Of a DNA stretch of 42,007 bases, positions 12,364 to 18,864 are shown piece after piece; position 1 is the first letter of the stretch; the number at the start of each line of letters is the position of its first letter. Under the pieces are notes generated by a model. That model saw nothing but the letters and a program-made list of their open reading frames with translations. It searched no databases and was not told where the DNA came from. The stretch is taken from positions 1 through 42,007 of the forward strand of contig JBOIEE010000334.1 in NCBI GenBank assembly GCA_050740975.1, in the 5' to 3' direction. Both the position numbers and the translations under genes were made by a program. This stretch comes from Gammaproteobacteria bacterium (GTDB lineage: Bacteria; Pseudomonadota; Gammaproteobacteria; JBOHHR01).

Positions 12364-13572
12364 ATGGCACGTTATACGAGGTTTGATCTACTGCATAGGC
12401 ATGATGGCGGAAGCCGCCGCACAGGGTTTCGTGCGCGAGCGTTTTCACTATTTGCGGTCCTATCTCTAGTGCTATGGGGCTGTGCCTCTGCACCGGTTGC
12501 CCCTAATGCTTCAGCGGCTGCGGCTTCCGGACTGATTGTTTCGGTGGCTTTCGCGCCCGACAGTCGCCTATGGCGGGTACGCGCCACAGCCGATCGGATT
12601 TATGTAGATTACTCAGACGATTTCGGAGTGAGCTATAGCGCGCCGATCACAGTGAATGAGACACCACAGCGGATCAGAGCGTTGCCAGAAGATCGGCCGG
12701 GGCTCGCAGCCGACAAATCGGGCCGTATCGCCGTGGTTTATTACGCCGAAGAGTCCCATGGCGTGGTTCCCTATTTCAGCTACTCACTGGATAGGGGCCA
12801 GCACTTCAGTTCACCGCGGCCTTTGACCACACCCGGATCCGAGGCCGAGCATGCGATGGTGAAGCTCGTGGCCGATGATAGGGATCGTTTCTACCTGTTC
12901 TGGTATGAGACTCGCGCACACGAGCCGGGCGCATCGCTTTACTATACGGTTAGCGACAAGCCTGAGATACTGCCTGTCCCCAACCGACGGATAACCGCTA
13001 CCCTGTGCGAATGCTGCCGGCTGGCGTTGGATTTTAATCGCGACCAACAGCCGGTACTATTGGCTCGGGTCATCTTTCCAGGAAGCGTCCGGGACCATGC
13101 GTTAATTGCACTCAACCCCGAGTCAACTCGGCGTGTGACTGACGACGACTGGTATATCGAAGCTTGTCCCAAGCACGGTCCGGCGCTCTCCATTGCTGCA
13201 GACGGTCGCTATCACATCGCCTGGTTTACCCAGGGCAAAAAACGGAAGGGCTTGTTCTACGCCTACGCGGATAACCTAGGACAGAGCTTCTCGCAACCCA
13301 AGCGTTTCGGTAACCCCAAATCCCTGCCCGAACACGCCGATGTCCTCGCGCTCGGAGATCGGGTAGTGCTCACTTGGAAGGAGTTCGATGGGCAACGGAC
13401 ACGACTCTTGGCGATGCAGTCCCGCGATCGCGGTAATACGTGGTTAGCAAGCAGTGTGATCGGAGAATCGAACAGCGGATCCGATCAGCCGGACCTCATC
13501 ACTAACGGCCAGCGTACGTTCGCGTCCTGGAGCGCTCTGGATAACGGCCATAGGCTCATTCCGATCCCGTAG
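12364..13572 (+). CDS. BNR/Asp-box repeat (sialidase-like beta-propeller) lipoprotein
   Basis: Lipobox LVLWGC. Four Asp-boxes: SDDFGVSY, SLDRGQHF, ADNLGQSF and SRDRGNTW. Confidence 0.7.
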   Translation: MARYTRFDLLHRHDGGSRRTGFRARAFSLFAVLSLVLWGCASAPVAPNASAAAASGLIVSVAFAPDSRLWRVRATADRIYVDYSDDFGVSYSAPITVNETPQRIRALPEDRPGLAADKSGRIAVVYYAEESHGVVPYFSYSLDRGQHFSSPRPLTTPGSEAEHAMVKLVADDRDRFYLFWYETRAHEPGASLYYTVSDKPEILPVPNRRITATLCECCRLALDFNRDQQPVLLARVIFPGSVRDHALIALNPESTRRVTDDDWYIEACPKHGPALSIAADGRYHIAWFTQGKKRKGLFYAYADNLGQSFSQPKRFGNPKSLPEHADVLALGDRVVLTWKEFDGQRTRLLAMQSRDRGNTWLASSVIGESNSGSDQPDLITNGQRTFASWSALDNGHRLIPIP

Positions 13573-13617
13573 GTTGAAGGAGGTGCGAATGATTTCGGGG
13601 AGCGAGGTGGGCGGAGG
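13566..13617 (+). repeat. Left 52-bp direct repeat (attL-like) of the islet
   Basis: cccgtaggttgaaggaggtgcgaatgatttcggggagcgaggtgggcggagg matches 18813-18864 at 50 of 52 positions. Contains the TAG stop of the BNR gene. Confidence 0.8.
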
Positions 13618-13639: not shown

Positions 13640-13808
13640 TGGTCATCCGTGGCGAGGAATTTCAGCTATGGAGACAGTAAACGTTTATCGGAAGCTACGT
13701 TGGACGCAGGGAGTGTCACATAGAATCCGACTGGCTGCTGATCTACAAGTTGGACCGGAACACATCCTCTTCGAGCGCACACGGTCGCACGCGGACTTAT
13801 TTAGAGAT
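13640..13808 (+). pseudogene. Multiply frameshifted YafQ/RelE-type toxin relic
   Basis: Frame fragments ..YVGRRECHIESDWLLIYKLD and ..PEHILFERTRSHADLF match the conserved C-terminal half of YafQ-family toxins (RECHI.PDWLLIYK...L.L.RTGSHSDLF) but sit in different frames. No partner antitoxin is present. Confidence 0.5.
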
Positions 13809-13925
13809 AACGCTGATTGAAACTAGGCCTGTGGGGTTAGATCCTATAGGTCATTTACGCGATCATATTGATTGCCTTATAGTTCAATATATGGCGTCTG
13901 GTTATATCTGCCTGTTGGATGAGAA

Positions 13926-16718
13926 ATGGCCAATACTGCAAACCCAATTACGTTCTTTCGCGGAGAGCCCTTCGAGTTGTCCCGGCCCGTGTCGAGCCGC
14001 TTTTTTGACAAGTTCGCTCAGAAATGGCGTCAACCGTTAGGAGAGGGAAGGCGGCCCCTCTTTGTGCTTGGCGCAGGAGTATCGCGCGCTGCATCTGTGC
14101 CAATGATGTCCGATATGCTTAGCCACCTAAGCAAGCTATTGGAAGAAGCGCAGCAGGACCAGACTACCGATAGTGCTCTAGGGGAAGCGCGCTTATACTC
14201 CGAACAAGCGATTGCAACGCGCGGTCGTACTGATTGTGCGCTGCTCTTTGGGGCGTTACAGGATTCGGAGAAACCAGAGGCAAGGGACGTATGGCGCACG
14301 TTCTGCCAGGACTTCATTTCTGGGGAGATTACCACTGATGCGCAACCGCCGGCGCATACCTCCCTATTCGAGGCCCAACCCACTGAGACGCACCAGTGGA
14401 TCGCAGATCTAGTAGTTACGTCTCAGGCGCAATGCATAAGTCTCAATTTCGATGGCCTCACCCGAAAAGCCATCGACAACATGCTCAGGAGCAAGAATGG
14501 ATCCGGTAAATGTGTGATCCTGGACACGGCTGAAAAGATAACGAACTTCATAGGCCGCGATCCAAGAAGCAATGAGGCAAAGCACCTGCGGTCTATAATC
14601 AAGCTGCGGGGAGACGTATTCTACGCCATCTGTGTTACGCCTGGCTGTCCTCTCTCAGAGATCCAGACTCCCGTTTATGACCTCCCGACCTCCGACCCAA
14701 AGCAGCGCCTAACGTGTCCTGAGTGCAAATGCCAGAGAAACCTCCAGATTGCGTTTCCGGGGCACCACGATAAAGAGCGGGAAAGCGAAGCGATTCTTGA
14801 CGCCGCATGGCGGTACCTAGTTCCGTCCACTTCATTGTTCATGATCATGGGCTTCAGTGGCGAATGGGATGGCAGCGTTGTCGAATTTGTTTTCTCGGCA
14901 GCACAACTGCTAAGCGTCCCAGTTATTGACGTCCGGATTAAACCGGACGAGGAGTCTTCGCATTACATTAAAGATATTTGGTGTCAGCGGTTCCCACGGG
15001 TAGAGTATCAGCCCATTTACTGCACTGCGGATGAATTCGCCACCCGCGCTGCAAACAATGTTAGTGCCAGGAATAACGCTGAGGTCATTGCAGTGGTCGG
15101 CTGCCCAGTCATAAAGCCTAAGCCCTTGCCCGCAGACCACATTTGGGACACCAGAGGGACAGACGTGCGTCCTATGATCGGTCAGATCTGCGCAGCCGAC
15201 GACTTTCGCAGTTTGGAGAACTACTCACAGTTAGGGCTTAAGACCTTCTGGTGGGGGGCGGTAGGGAGTTTCCAACTACACGACCGATATCACCACTCCA
15301 TTGGAACGATGCGAGTCGCTTCAAGATGGCATGGATGCCTCACGGATTGTGCTTTTTCGAATGACCTTTCAAGAGCAAGTGACAGAGAAAACGAATTCTT
15401 GGCTATTGCGGCATTGCTGCACGACTATGGACATCTCCCATTTTCACACTTGTTTGAAGAGATATTCGACGAGCTACATTGGACGACGGTGAATTCCTCG
15501 GGCAAACCATGGCACGAGGTCCTGACCCACAAAAAGATCCGCGAGCTGGTCGCCATGGATATCGCTGGTAAGCAAGATGCTGTTAAAATGTACACTGAAT
15601 ATCTCGGATTTACGGTCGATCAATTGCTCAGTTTGATAGATGGATGTCTTGGAAAGCCTTATCTCGACGCACTTGTTAATAGCCCCCTCGACGCAGACAA
15701 GATCGATTATGTATTTCGTGACCTCTACTTCCTTGAAATGGCGGGCAAGCTGGAACATAGAAGGCTTGGGAATAGCGTAGGAGATCCTATAGCGTGGCGA
15801 GATGATTTCTTTCGAGAACAAGAGCTATCCCCGGAGCAACTAATTCGTCTCAACGGCCGTTCTGCTTTAAGATTGCTGGAACTTCTCGAGACACGACGAA
15901 ATCTGTATTTTAAGTTTTACCTTTCTCCTGAAATGCGTGTGATGGAGCGGATTACGGCCTTCGTAATGACTAATTATCTCGCGCACGTCATATCAAGAAA
16001 GCTAGGTGATGAGATTCGAGATAGCGATCAGCCGTTCGAATACGATCACGGCGATCTGAAAGTTCGCCTCGCAACCGATAACATCCTTGGCAAGTACGAC
16101 AACGTGATGATCAACCACAGCACTAATAAGTATAAGGAGCTCCCCCTGTTGGGTGTGCTCCTGGAAGAGTTGCTGGAGGACGGGTTTCCGATTGACGATG
16201 TCCCGCGTGAGGTGCTCAAGAAACTTAAGGATACGCTGAATAGATTCCCGAAAGATCGAGACGAAGGCCCATTCGGGGTGACAGTAAGGGACGTATATAA
16301 GGATTTGCACGTTGGTGGACCGTATTATTTCGACTCGTCGCATGAAGGAAAGATTAGGGACATGGTTAGAGAACTAACCTTGCTCTATCAGGGTTCAGTG
16401 CTGTTCGATGTTGTTAAGACTCCGCGCTTCCTTGCTGGGGCAAAAACAAGAAGATATCGTCGCTTGTGGGCCAATGGAGAGGTTATCGGAGAGACGTTTC
16501 TAGTGCCGTCCATTAATCCAATGAAATGGACAGTCAAGACACGTGCCGCGGTTCCGTTAGGCGCTGTAGATTTCGGGCAACTCGAACGTCAGTACCTTCA
16601 GGTGATTGTCTTTGACCCGCTAGGTTATCCTACAAAGGCTCGTTTCGTTGACCAAGAGTTTCGGCGCAGATGCCGTGCGAGTGGCGTCGATTTTATGGAC
16701 ACAATTACGTCGAATTGA
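13926..16718 (+). CDS. Fusion protein: N-terminal sirtuin (SIR2)-like domain with Zn-ribbon, plus C-terminal SAMHD1/COG1078-type HD phosphohydrolase domain
   Basis: SIR2 motifs: GAGVS (aa 49-53), HQWIADL..ISLNFDGL (156-178), and Cys236/241/264/267. HD motifs: HDRYHHSIG (452-460), LLHDYGHLPFSH (497-508), DADKIDYVFRD (589-599). First ATG after an in-frame stop. 930 aa. Confidence 0.85.
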   Translation: MANTANPITFFRGEPFELSRPVSSRFFDKFAQKWRQPLGEGRRPLFVLGAGVSRAASVPMMSDMLSHLSKLLEEAQQDQTTDSALGEARLYSEQAIATRGRTDCALLFGALQDSEKPEARDVWRTFCQDFISGEITTDAQPPAHTSLFEAQPTETHQWIADLVVTSQAQCISLNFDGLTRKAIDNMLRSKNGSGKCVILDTAEKITNFIGRDPRSNEAKHLRSIIKLRGDVFYAICVTPGCPLSEIQTPVYDLPTSDPKQRLTCPECKCQRNLQIAFPGHHDKERESEAILDAAWRYLVPSTSLFMIMGFSGEWDGSVVEFVFSAAQLLSVPVIDVRIKPDEESSHYIKDIWCQRFPRVEYQPIYCTADEFATRAANNVSARNNAEVIAVVGCPVIKPKPLPADHIWDTRGTDVRPMIGQICAADDFRSLENYSQLGLKTFWWGAVGSFQLHDRYHHSIGTMRVASRWHGCLTDCAFSNDLSRASDRENEFLAIAALLHDYGHLPFSHLFEEIFDELHWTTVNSSGKPWHEVLTHKKIRELVAMDIAGKQDAVKMYTEYLGFTVDQLLSLIDGCLGKPYLDALVNSPLDADKIDYVFRDLYFLEMAGKLEHRRLGNSVGDPIAWRDDFFREQELSPEQLIRLNGRSALRLLELLETRRNLYFKFYLSPEMRVMERITAFVMTNYLAHVISRKLGDEIRDSDQPFEYDHGDLKVRLATDNILGKYDNVMINHSTNKYKELPLLGVLLEELLEDGFPIDDVPREVLKKLKDTLNRFPKDRDEGPFGVTVRDVYKDLHVGGPYYFDSSHEGKIRDMVRELTLLYQGSVLFDVVKTPRFLAGAKTRRYRRLWANGEVIGETFLVPSINPMKWTVKTRAAVPLGAVDFGQLERQYLQVIVFDPLGYPTKARFVDQEFRRRCRASGVDFMDTITSN

Positions 16719-16735: not shown

Positions 16736-17842
16736 ATGGGAAACGTATCCTGGTTTACGTACGAATGTATTTTTGGATCCGTGCACCATCTGAAGGCAAT
16801 TGAATTTATTAATGAGAAGGAGAACCAAAGACTTGAGGGCTTTTACCGGGCACTTCCAAACGTCAGAGCGGAGGTATCTCCCGACGTTTCGAGCGCAATC
16901 GGCCGCTTCTTGACAACGAGTGAGATCTCCCTGGCAGATAACGAACGGCTAGAGCGGTGCTTGGCAGACCTGCTTATGAATAACATGCATCGATATCTTC
17001 GAGAAGAAGGTCCGGTTCTACTCGTGGAGGGACCCCCGCTCTCAAAACTGATTGGGCGCATTGGTTACCGGTACCCGCGCCCCGAAGTGACCATTGCGTT
17101 TGTCACAATTCGACCAGAATACCTACCCCAGCCTGGTGGGGCATCGGTGATGTCGGATGGTTGGAACGGTCCTTTCCCGGGGTTACAGGAAGATACGGTC
17201 CGAAGGACATATTTCCGATACAAACCAATTCCTATACGACTGGACATTTTCGCACAGGGATTGCAACGGTTCCGTCCGCTATGCAAAAAGGGAGGTGTCC
17301 CCATGGGCGTTACAGCAAAACTGAGGGCAATTTCTGAAGATGTCCTAAAGTTCGCGGATTATCTGAATCAGCGAGAGGCCCAAAGCCAGCCGAGATATAT
17401 TGCCGGACAACCGAAGAGGTTCACTCCTGTCGCAGACGAGGGTACGATCAATGAAAACTTAGCGGAGGCAGCGAGAGGTGGCAAGGCCGATGCTAGTAGC
17501 AAGAAGAGGGAACCTCGAACACCCAATCGGTCGACCGATCCATCAGTGGAGCGGGGAAAACGCGACCTCGTCAGGGCCCTCACCTCTGTTCCCGAGGACG
17601 CAATCCTCGATACGATCTTTGACAAAACGGACCGGCACATTAGGAAGGCTAACGGCGACCTGGTTAAGCAGTTTTTGGCAGAGAGGGGACTTGGAACAAT
17701 AGACGAAAAGCAGAACAAACAATTGTTGATATTTGTACAGAAAAGAATTATCGAGGAGCGCAAGGAGCGGCCATATAGATTGACTGTTCAGGACTTGGAA
17801 AGATGGTATGCAGAATTTAAGGGAGACGAGGGACGGAGCTAG
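16736..17842 (+). CDS. Hypothetical protein with no recognisable motif (middle gene of the operon)
   Basis: ATG at 16736 preceded by AGGAGG (16725-16730), 17 nt after the gene 1 stop. 368 aa, with a charged Lys/Arg/Glu-rich C-terminal third. Confidence 0.7.
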   Translation: MGNVSWFTYECIFGSVHHLKAIEFINEKENQRLEGFYRALPNVRAEVSPDVSSAIGRFLTTSEISLADNERLERCLADLLMNNMHRYLREEGPVLLVEGPPLSKLIGRIGYRYPRPEVTIAFVTIRPEYLPQPGGASVMSDGWNGPFPGLQEDTVRRTYFRYKPIPIRLDIFAQGLQRFRPLCKKGGVPMGVTAKLRAISEDVLKFADYLNQREAQSQPRYIAGQPKRFTPVADEGTINENLAEAARGGKADASSKKREPRTPNRSTDPSVERGKRDLVRALTSVPEDAILDTIFDKTDRHIRKANGDLVKQFLAERGLGTIDEKQNKQLLIFVQKRIIEERKERPYRLTVQDLERWYAEFKGDEGRS

Positions 17843-17844
17843 GC

Positions 17845-18732
17845 GTGCGCTATAGAAGCGAGCGAGTGCTAACCTTTTCACGCTATTGGGGTGCGCCACA
17901 CCCTGTCATCGCGATGGAGAGGGCCATCGACGCTGCTTTTCCCGACCTCGACCGAATGCAGCCACCAATCGATCTTCGGAAACTGGGAGAGCGTAGGGGT
18001 ATCAAAGTTGTCGAGCGCCCAATCGACGCTGATGGCCTTATTTTTCGGGCCGAAGATGAAGGATATGTAGTCGTCCTAAACACGCGTGCCCAAGAGGAGC
18101 GGCGGCGTTTTACCCTTGCACATGAGATTGCTCACACTTTTTTCTTTGACGCGGAAGGCTGCCGCGGCTATGAAACTACAGCGAGTCGCGGTGAAGTCAG
18201 ACGCGAGGTTGATCCAGAGGAAGAGCATTTATGCGATTATGGGGCAGCCAAGATCCTAATGCCTAAGGGATTAATCGCGCCGCTGCTCGACACATTTGGG
18301 CCAAGTGCCCATTTTGTTGTTCAGGTCGCGAGAACGTTCAAGGTGTCAATGCGGGCTAGTGCGCGGCATCTGGTTAAGATTAGCGATACAAAGATTGTAG
18401 TGGGATATTGGGAATATCGAGCCTCGCGTGGGCAGTTCGAGACATCGTGGGTAGAGGGGCGAGAGACCGCCAAAGGCAGAAGGGCGATGGCAGTGGGAAA
18501 AGACCAGCCAATATTCGACGACTTCCTAGCAGCGCAGGATTTTCGTGGTAGGAGATGGATGTCTTTGGGAGGGGACCTACAGCATTATTTTGTGGATGCA
18601 GTGTTCCTGAAGGGTACGCCGCGACGATGGCTTACTGAGATTGTGCTTGATCCCATCGCCGAGAGGGGGTTTGTGGGGCGATCGACGCGGATAGCAGGTT
18701 TAAGTGGCGAGGTTCCTGGCCACCTGCGTTAG
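17845..18732 (+). CDS. ImmA/IrrE-family (COG2856, peptidase M78-like) zinc metalloprotease
   Basis: HEIAH (aa 93-97, nt 18121-18135) followed by EEEHLCDYGAAKILMP, the family's third-ligand / FA..LLMP-like motif. GTG start 2 nt after the gene 2 stop (alternative ATG at 17914). I see no HTH domain. Confidence 0.8.
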   Translation: MRYRSERVLTFSRYWGAPHPVIAMERAIDAAFPDLDRMQPPIDLRKLGERRGIKVVERPIDADGLIFRAEDEGYVVVLNTRAQEERRRFTLAHEIAHTFFFDAEGCRGYETTASRGEVRREVDPEEEHLCDYGAAKILMPKGLIAPLLDTFGPSAHFVVQVARTFKVSMRASARHLVKISDTKIVVGYWEYRASRGQFETSWVEGRETAKGRRAMAVGKDQPIFDDFLAAQDFRGRRWMSLGGDLQHYFVDAVFLKGTPRRWLTEIVLDPIAERGFVGRSTRIAGLSGEVPGHLR

Positions 18733-18812: not shown

Positions 18813-18864
18813 CCCGTAGGTTGGAGGAGGTGCGAATGATTTCGGGGGGCGAGGTGGGCGGAGG
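18813..18864 (+). repeat. Right 52-bp direct repeat (attR-like) of the islet
   Basis: cccgtaggttggaggaggtgcgaatgatttcggggggcgaggtgggcggagg. Flanking sequence on both sides is unrelated to that around the left copy. Confidence 0.8.

Follow-up and report, generated by a model that had tools for sequence, protein, structure and literature searches.

A CapP-like M78 protease and a portable L-A-A-R tail as a candidate protein-level switch beside a SIR2-like/HD protein

ImmA/IrrE proteases normally cleave a cognate XRE- or DdrO-type repressor that is encoded next to them. Cleavage sites are established for CapP and IrrE, two GAF-bearing M78 proteases that are both stimulated by single-stranded DNA (ssDNA). 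Specifically, CapP cuts CapH between F82 and R83, leaving a CapH R83A variant uncut, and IrrE cuts DdrO between L106 and R107. Many CapP proteins, though not every one, have a cysteine-switch loop. A survey of protease-effector modules covers serine and caspase-like proteases and does not mention metallopeptidases. Here we describe a three-gene cassette on the forward strand of a Gammaproteobacteria contig (JBOIEE010000334.1, assembly GCA_050740975.1), of which the whole 42,007-nucleotide stretch analyzed is termed the window. In this cassette, a CapP/IrrE-type M78 protease (gene 3) follows a protein of 368 amino acids (aa) (gene 2), which itself follows a SIR2-like/HD protein (gene 1). A helix-turn-helix (HTH) partner of the XRE family was sought in gene 2, in the flanks of the islet that holds the cassette and in homologous loci, and none was found.

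Gene 2 ends in a tail, composed of a disordered linker with a conserved L-A-A-R motif and a small helical domain, that also forms the C-terminus of proteins with otherwise unrelated N-terminal regions. This tail occurs together with a single clade of M78 proteases. The initial annotation of the locus, made from the sequence alone, had suggested that gene 2 may be a non-canonical M78 substrate lacking an HTH, so that switching would involve a protein and not transcription. The comparative evidence presented below supports both proposals, and we consider it likely that the tail of gene 2 is a substrate of the gene 3 protease.

The tail and its protease clade

The principal features of the cassette are as follows, with positions given in the window.
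13926-16718, + strand: gene 1, 930 aa, with a SIR2-like N-domain, a SAMHD1/EF1143-type, dNTPase-like HD domain and a C-terminal region of ~330 aa
16726-16731, + strand: AGGAGG ribosome-binding site of gene 2, 4 nucleotides (nt) 5' of the ATG, read from the sequence
16736-17842, + strand: gene 2, 368 aa (ATG at 16736, TAG at 17840-17842)
16736-17383, + strand: N-domain of gene 2, residues 1-216, delimited by the AlphaFold2 model, Foldseek and family conservation
17384-17590, + strand: disordered linker of gene 2, residues ~217-285, delimited by model confidence and alignments
17468-17476, + strand: A245-A246-R247 motif, a candidate M78 cleavage site (A246|R247) proposed from conservation and from the CapH and DdrO parallels
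17591-17839, + strand: C-domain of gene 2, residues 286-368, modeled by AlphaFold2 as 4-5 helices
17845-18732, + strand: gene 3, starting at a GTG, 295 aa, a CapP/IrrE-type M78 zinc metallopeptidase
18121-18135, + strand: HEIAH zinc-binding/catalytic motif of gene 3 (H93-H97), identified from the sequence and invariant in the clade

The three genes are co-directional, and the GTG of gene 3 lies 2 nt past the stop codon of gene 2 in a different frame, the spacing that had been noted initially. An AlphaFold2 model of gene 2, built from a family alignment, yields a confident N-domain, a disordered linker and a helical C-domain. Thus, the highly charged tail of ~110 aa described in the initial annotation is present, but it is a disordered linker joined to a folded helical domain (residues 286-367) rather than a plain tail. 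The linker is modeled with a predicted local distance difference test (pLDDT) score of only 25-29 and, in alignments A1 and A2, is unconserved except for the AAR motif.

The single conserved linker element in the aligned tails reads [R/P]-L-A-A-R and is followed by small polar residues. Among 47 tails, the P2 position is Ala in every case (47/47), P1 is Ala in 42/47, P1' is Arg or Lys in 42/47, and P3 is Leu in 24/47. The AAR tripeptide is found in 64 of 112 family proteins, compared to 17.9±4.0 (maximum 31) in shuffles that preserve composition. Tail carriers have it 103-124 residues before the C-terminus, and the helical domain begins 25-35 residues past the L-A-A-R motif. Distant N-domain subfamilies have different C-terminal sequences and also carry L-A-A-R, in this case 24-46 residues before the end and again with an M78 gene next. 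We regard the A246|R247 bond as the candidate cleavage site because it parallels F82|R83 of CapH and L106|R107 of DdrO, each of which places a hydrophobic residue before Arg.

The C-domain is modeled from a 32-sequence alignment (A2) as 4-5 helices with pLDDT values of 84-95, and its conserved residues are chiefly hydrophobic or aromatic core positions. Searches with this domain found no significant Foldseek neighbor in PDB or BFVD (best E ~1), no Pfam or NCBIfam family and no match in a PDB profile search. Many tails finish in ...G-S-(K/R)-(L/R), such as the GSKL and GSKR endings seen among P0047, P0053, P0035 and P0041, and this end may serve as a C-terminal recognition element. The tail of gene 2 itself finishes in ...GDEGRS.

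Tail and protease are paired in every locus read for this purpose (the locus itself, L001-L014 and L179/L180). In each, the tail-bearing gene is followed by an M78 gene of ~296-298 aa, the two genes overlapping by as much as 4 nt or lying up to 12 nt apart. The downstream M78 gene of L179/L180 is only a fragment, and it carries the N-terminal signature of the clade. The M78 proteases of these loci belong to one clade that shares an N-terminal extension and a set of invariant residues.

The reverse comparison gives the same pattern. Metagenome contigs were pattern-scanned with the clade alignment to yield 80 M78 loci, and a protease was called clade-type when the profile matched its full length or its N-terminal region. 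A tail-bearing open reading frame (ORF) ends at the protease start in 6/6 loci with a clade-type M78 gene and in 0/74 loci with any other M78 gene. A separate set of 80 M78 loci from species-representative genomes, all of the generic type and serving as a negative control, includes none with a tail or an N-domain (0/80).

The tails and the M78 proteases of L001 and L003 are both nearer to those of L006 and L007, whose carriers have other N-domains, than to those of gene 2/gene 3, L002 and L004, which share their N-domain. This grouping suggests that tail and protease travel as a cassette. The divergences of tail and protease correlate overall (Mantel r = 0.69, p = 2e-4), a value that largely reflects within-family relatedness. 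Between families the correlation is weak (r = 0.20), and for this reason we dropped co-divergence as proof of an interaction.

Gene 2 is also retained between homologues of genes 1 and 3. Wherever the flanks of a homologous locus are readable (L001-L005, L015 and L017), the trio occurs in the same order and on the same strand. In L004 and L005, the contig ends within the upstream gene, and what is present of it matches the C-terminal part of gene 1. The most divergent example, L017 (744-6857), has a 1117-aa gene 1 homologue of 27% identity whose SIR2 GAGxS loop is degenerate. Next come a member of the N-domain family, which bears an L-A-A-R of its own close to its end, and a 401-aa M78 protein, with an additional 166-aa gene directly after.

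Its sequence places gene 3 in the M78 family, with a predicted function most like that of CapP and IrrE. The protease core recognized initially (HEIAH and E...AAKILMP) corresponds to a Pfam Peptidase_M78 (PF06114) match of 58.5 bits, against a cut-off of 22 (7.4e-16). The best PADLOC profile is CapP (5.8e-23), with RmrA profiles weaker (best 2.2e-9), and IrrE structures are matched at 3.5e-15 (8slm) and 2e-12 (3dte). The active-site set comprises H93-E94-I-A-H97 and E126/E127...AAKILMP, with a spacing that resembles H82/E83/H86/E113 of IrrE. An alignment of eight clade members (A3) reveals H93, E94, H97, E126, E127, C130, W189, W202, R234, W238, Y248 and D251 as invariant. Five of these residues (W189, W202, R234, W238 and Y248) lie in the ~100 C-terminal residues past the IrrE-aligned region (61-199), a stretch that is a candidate counterpart of the GAF-like sensor domain with an ssDNA groove of CapP/IrrE-type peptidases. 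The GTG is the earliest possible start codon for gene 3. Only with this start does the protein include a clade-specific N-terminal block, which reads RYWG in gene 3 and 'kfC.hW' in relatives and is alignable from residue ~5, and this supports its use.

Gene 3 carries a cysteine, Cys106 (18160-18162), with acidic residues after it; it is placed between HExxH and the third zinc ligand, in the loop that holds the cysteine switch of CapP. Other clade members lack this Cys, and the invariant Cys of the clade is C130, located past the Glu. We therefore set aside a CapP-type cysteine switch for this clade, since the position is not conserved.

Partner domains, tail carriers and the islet

The initial annotation had treated gene 2 as an orphan. 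This view no longer holds, as a word-indexed search returned 11 relatives at 30-44% identity, and an exhaustive profile search expanded the family to 105 cluster representatives at E<=1e-3. In the exhaustive search, the N-domain was matched separately from the linker plus C-domain. PHROGs yielded a sole weak match for gene 2, phrog_3562, whose function is not known.

The N-domain model (residues 1-216, pLDDT mostly 80-95) has a beta-beta-beta-alpha-beta-alpha-beta order, assigned by DSSP, that matches the ribonuclease H (RNase H) core. Nearly all of the top 50 Foldseek matches in PDB are Endonuclease V (EndoV) or Argonaute/PIWI structures, with EndoV ranked first. The scores for these matches range from E 4.8e-4 to 7e-3, with probabilities of 0.8-1.0 and template modeling (TM) scores on the target of 0.3-0.41. 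As modeled, the N-domain is an EndoV/PIWI-like RNase H fold, a likeness that exists at the level of the fold only. Gene 2 has no Pfam match, including to Endonuclease_5 or Piwi, and sequence-level kinship with EndoV was set aside after an empty hhalign comparison between alignment A1 and E. coli Nfi.

The classical acidic catalytic set is missing from this domain. Strand 1 has no conserved acid, and the residue preceding G99 is E, Q or K. Among 56 family members, the near-invariant residues are E73, R74, D78, G99, P100, K104, G107, R108, Y111 and R112. The N-domain is thus better read as a binding or non-canonical domain than as a standard nuclease, an interpretation we derive from these residues and the predicted fold.

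Profile and structure searches of gene 2 had been proposed initially. A cryptic HTH in gene 2 was rejected after Pfam, NCBIfam, PADLOC, PHROGs, a PDB profile search and Foldseek comparisons of two AlphaFold models all returned none. Gene 3 is likewise free of any HTH in Pfam, NCBIfam, PADLOC and PHROGs, as had been noted for both genes.

Gene 1 is matched by the Pfam HD family (2.1e-6) and, across residues 413-616, by the PDB entries 9mr6 and 2o6i and by SAMHD1; its SAMHD1/EF1143-type HD motifs are intact. Matches to SIR2 are weak and cover residues 42-82. In the sequence 'KLRGD' (residues ~225-229; 14598-14612), Arg replaces the sirtuin catalytic His of the LHG motif, and the same swap is present in all five homologues compared, including the one with 27% identity. 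On this sequence evidence, the SIR2-like domain may bind nicotinamide adenine dinucleotide (NAD) or another ligand instead of cleaving NAD. Homologues of gene 1 are collinear, with 46% identity in L001-L003 and 27% in L017.

At least six unrelated N-terminal types end in the tail formed by the AAR motif and the helical domain, and they are as follows.
EndoV-like: the gene 2 family (L001-L005)
SAMHD1-like HD proteins: P0037, P0049, P0053, P0062, P0069 and P0092 (locus L007)
FTCD_C cyclodeaminase-like: the P0041 group, matched by PDB 7vg4 at 3.6e-13 and by Pfam FTCD_C (loci L179/L180)
A ~570-aa type without known identity (locus L006)
A ~630-aa type without known identity (loci L009-L011)
A ~270-aa type without known identity

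PDB sequence searches with the ~570-aa and ~630-aa carriers gave no match. The enzymes that terminate in the tail (HD and FTCD_C) are 390-881 aa in length. In L179 (659-1834) and L180 (588-1763), a domain resembling formimino/methenyl-tetrahydrofolate cyclodeaminase is joined to the tail, and the clade M78 gene is next. The presence of a folate-enzyme-like domain under the proposed protease control is unexpected.

Related loci are surrounded by toxin-antitoxin, TIR/Mrr and ubiquitin-like (Bil/Bub-type) conflict genes. In L009 (8938-10318), and also in L010 and L011, a TIR_2/Mrr_cat protein of 280 aa and a 178-aa protein of no known function are encoded directly 3' of the tail-carrier/M78 pair, and these genes may together form a larger defense operon. 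In L006 (3864-5665), a BubE / DUF6791-ThiF / Multi_ubiq set, representing a bacterial ubiquitin-like conflict system, adjoins the pair.

The cassette under study resides in a 5.2-kb islet. Its boundaries are marked by direct repeats whose two copies are 5247 bp apart.
13566-13617, no strand assigned: 52-bp direct repeat, left copy, found by repeat search, 96% identical to the right copy
18813-18864, no strand assigned: 52-bp direct repeat, right copy, found by repeat search

The repeats are compatible with insertion of a mobile islet, and the guanine-plus-cytosine content drops to 0.49-0.53 inside it. Between the left repeat and gene 1, a short ORF (13668-13820) carries a RelE/YafQ-like fragment ('ILFERTRSHADLF') that, judging by its sequence, looks like the relic of a toxin gene. 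A small HTH gene was sought in the islet flanks and none was found; their contents are the degenerate toxin-like fragment and the direct repeats.

A proposed proteolytic switch and its rivals

What we observe is the gene order, domain content, motif conservation and exclusive co-occurrence of tail and protease. From these we infer that cleavage occurs and where, that ssDNA is the cue, which way the switch turns and that the cassette serves in defense. By analogy with CapP and IrrE, gene 3 would sense ssDNA that arises from DNA damage or phage replication, and would then cut gene 2 between A246 and R247. The helical domain probably docks on the protease, which would make the tail a specific substrate, and the cut would separate this domain from the EndoV/PIWI-like N-domain. 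Cleaved gene 2 would act differently on gene 1, most likely such that the effector is released or licensed. Deoxynucleoside triphosphates (dNTPs), and possibly NAD-related metabolites, would be depleted and phage replication would stall.

Elsewhere, the same tail and protease pair could directly gate other enzymes as a portable cassette. In the two-gene systems, the tail is fused to a SAMHD1-like enzyme and there is no other partner; therefore, on the simplest reading, cleavage changes how active the attached or associated enzyme is. For the mechanism as a whole, in which gene 2 is a dedicated M78 substrate and acts as a protein-level gate on the SIR2-HD effector, we judge the odds to be slightly better than even.

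Several observations weigh against this mechanism or narrow it. The L-A-A-R motif could have another use, such as binding, and the divergences of tail and protease are poorly coupled between families. The CapP switch residue is not conserved in the clade, so that activation may proceed by another mechanism. The EndoV/PIWI assignment derives from a fold search alone (E ~5e-4, TM 0.3-0.4), and the comparison of the N-domain with Nfi was empty. NAD cleavage by gene 1 is doubtful because the catalytic His is Arg in all homologues. The FTCD_C carrier looks metabolic, which is compatible with a housekeeping damage response as well as with defense. All relatives of the cassette come from metagenomes or metagenome-assembled genomes. 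Finally, cleavage could inactivate rather than activate.

This last possibility underlies the main rival, which we regard as unlikely. It retains the substrate link and reverses its sign: the enzymes would be active by default, for example as a SAMHD1-like barrier that lowers dNTPs, and the protease would shut them off upon DNA damage to free dNTPs and folate cofactors for repair. The tail does sit on enzymes of nucleotide metabolism (SAMHD1-like HD and FTCD_C), IrrE and CapP respond to DNA damage, and DdrO and CapH are inactivated by cleavage, which destroys their oligomerization. However, a repeat-bounded islet and the conflict genes that neighbor the relatives fit inducible defense effectors, which are usually latent, and always-active SIR2/HD effectors would normally be costly to the cell.

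There is a slim chance that the locus follows classical logic with a new fold. The C-domain would then be a cryptic DNA-binding domain through which gene 2 keeps the operon repressed until the protease relieves it, in the style of ImmR/ImmA or CapH/CapP. All characterized GAF-bearing M78 proteases cut DNA-binding repressors, and the C-domain is the kind of small, charged helical bundle in which DNA binding can evade fold searches. Yet Pfam, NCBIfam and Foldseek against PDB and BFVD return no DNA-binding family for it (best E ~1), its conserved residues map mainly to the core, and it terminates enzymes of 390-881 aa, which is not expected of autorepressors.

A similarly small probability applies to a toxin-antitoxin arrangement of the RosmerTA/COG2856 type, wherein the M78 protein constitutively neutralizes gene 2, or genes 1 and 2, by binding or processing and there is no signal switch. 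The weaker RmrA matches in PADLOC, a translational coupling typical of toxin-antitoxin pairs, and the toxin-antitoxin genes near related loci could all be accommodated in this way. But gene 3 lacks the N-terminal HTH of RmrA, whose profiles match it only over their C-terminal protease segment (profile positions ~142-283), and it is matched far better by CapP, while PADLOC finds no RmrT-like match for gene 2. Furthermore, the long sensor-like C-terminal region of gene 3, with its invariant Trp, Arg and Tyr residues, suggests control by a ligand.

The remaining explanation, which dispenses with a proteolytic link between the two proteins, strikes us as very improbable. Here the tail would be an assembly domain that recruits the M78 protein, AAR would have a structural or binding role, and the protease would target a phage protein or gene 1. 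Co-occurrence by itself is no proof of cleavage, and in the case of the M78 relative Rir, inhibition of the partner works through binding, with no demonstrable cleavage. Nevertheless, a short motif preserved in an otherwise freely drifting disordered linker, with the Arg that occupies P1' of the two mapped M78 sites, has the look of a cleavage site, and the clade shows no variation in its HExxH...E catalytic residues.

Significance and comparison with known systems

If proteases of this clade do cut the tail on enzymes, then ssDNA-sensing logic would govern immunity or nucleotide metabolism post-translationally, at greater speed than transcription allows and without depending on it. Metalloproteases would join the protease-effector modules, and a new domain family with a testable candidate cleavage motif would be gained. 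A modular protein switch that is possibly triggered by DNA damage would also be of biotechnological interest. The locus further offers a concrete handle on an unstudied SIR2-like/SAMHD1-like/EndoV-like cassette of environmental bacteria. In the literature, we found no description of the tail or of such a pairing of M78 protease and effector.

The closest biochemical relatives are CapP-CapH, which is found in cyclic oligonucleotide-based antiphage signaling (CBASS) and other immune operons, and IrrE/PprI-DdrO of Deinococcus. Like these systems, the cassette encodes an M78 zinc peptidase of ~280-300 aa that consists of a protease domain and a C-terminal region, in gene 3 a putative sensor. The substrate gene, which here is a proposed substrate, is adjacent and translationally coupled, and the proposed cut precedes Arg and follows a hydrophobic or small residue.

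The differences are equally distinct. Gene 2 has no XRE HTH, and its proposed site falls in a disordered linker that precedes a novel helical domain, whereas the CapH and DdrO sites are inside a dimerization helix C-terminal to the HTH. The tail resides on enzymes or on an EndoV/PIWI-like domain, and the proposed output is at the protein level rather than transcriptional. In addition, the cysteine switch of CapP is not conserved in the gene 3 clade, which has its own N-terminal extension.

Further comparisons concern the partners. RosmerTA (RmrT/RmrA) likewise pairs an M78 protein with a non-HTH partner in a defense context, but RmrA has an N-terminal HTH fused to its M78 domain that gene 3 lacks, and gene 2 has no similarity to RmrT. 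The short prokaryotic Argonaute system SPARSA, with SIR2, and Endonuclease V resemble the locus in that an RNase H-fold domain of the PIWI/EndoV clade is encoded beside a SIR2-domain protein. Unlike these, gene 2 has no MID or APAZ region, no sequence-level similarity and no DED(D/H) set, such that the likeness is one of fold only, and the locus adds an HD dNTPase domain and a protease. Among the SAMHD1-like/dGTPase defense enzymes, gene 1 matches the architecture of SIR2-dGTPase fusions (PMC13519002), which were noted there without an EndoV-like partner, a tail or an M78 protease.

Conceptually, the closest class is that of the protease-effector zymogen modules. These also join a linked protease gene to a latent protein, here proposed as such, that carries a conserved candidate cleavage motif, and they too are modular and reused across partners and defense islands. 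The known examples employ serine or caspase-like cysteine proteases and effector-specific inhibitory segments, whereas this cassette would employ an M78 metalloprotease, which by analogy probably senses ssDNA itself, and a shared portable tail.

A bolder version of this comparison, which we put forward only tentatively and consider rather doubtful, is that the L-A-A-R linker, the helical domain and the CapP-like M78 protease constitute a portable 'fuse' that joins a DNA-damage or ssDNA sensor to enzymes, as the first metalloprotease-based zymogen system in prokaryotic immunity. In the trio, a SIR2-like/SAMHD1-like effector would be teamed with an Argonaute/EndoV-fold protein that binds nucleic acid, much as in short prokaryotic Argonaute systems with SIR2, and proteolysis would license the complex. 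Regardless of how far this extension holds, the reading we favor for the cassette is that of a CapP-like, putative sensor protease reused, via a portable L-A-A-R tail, as the probable trigger of a protease-effector module.

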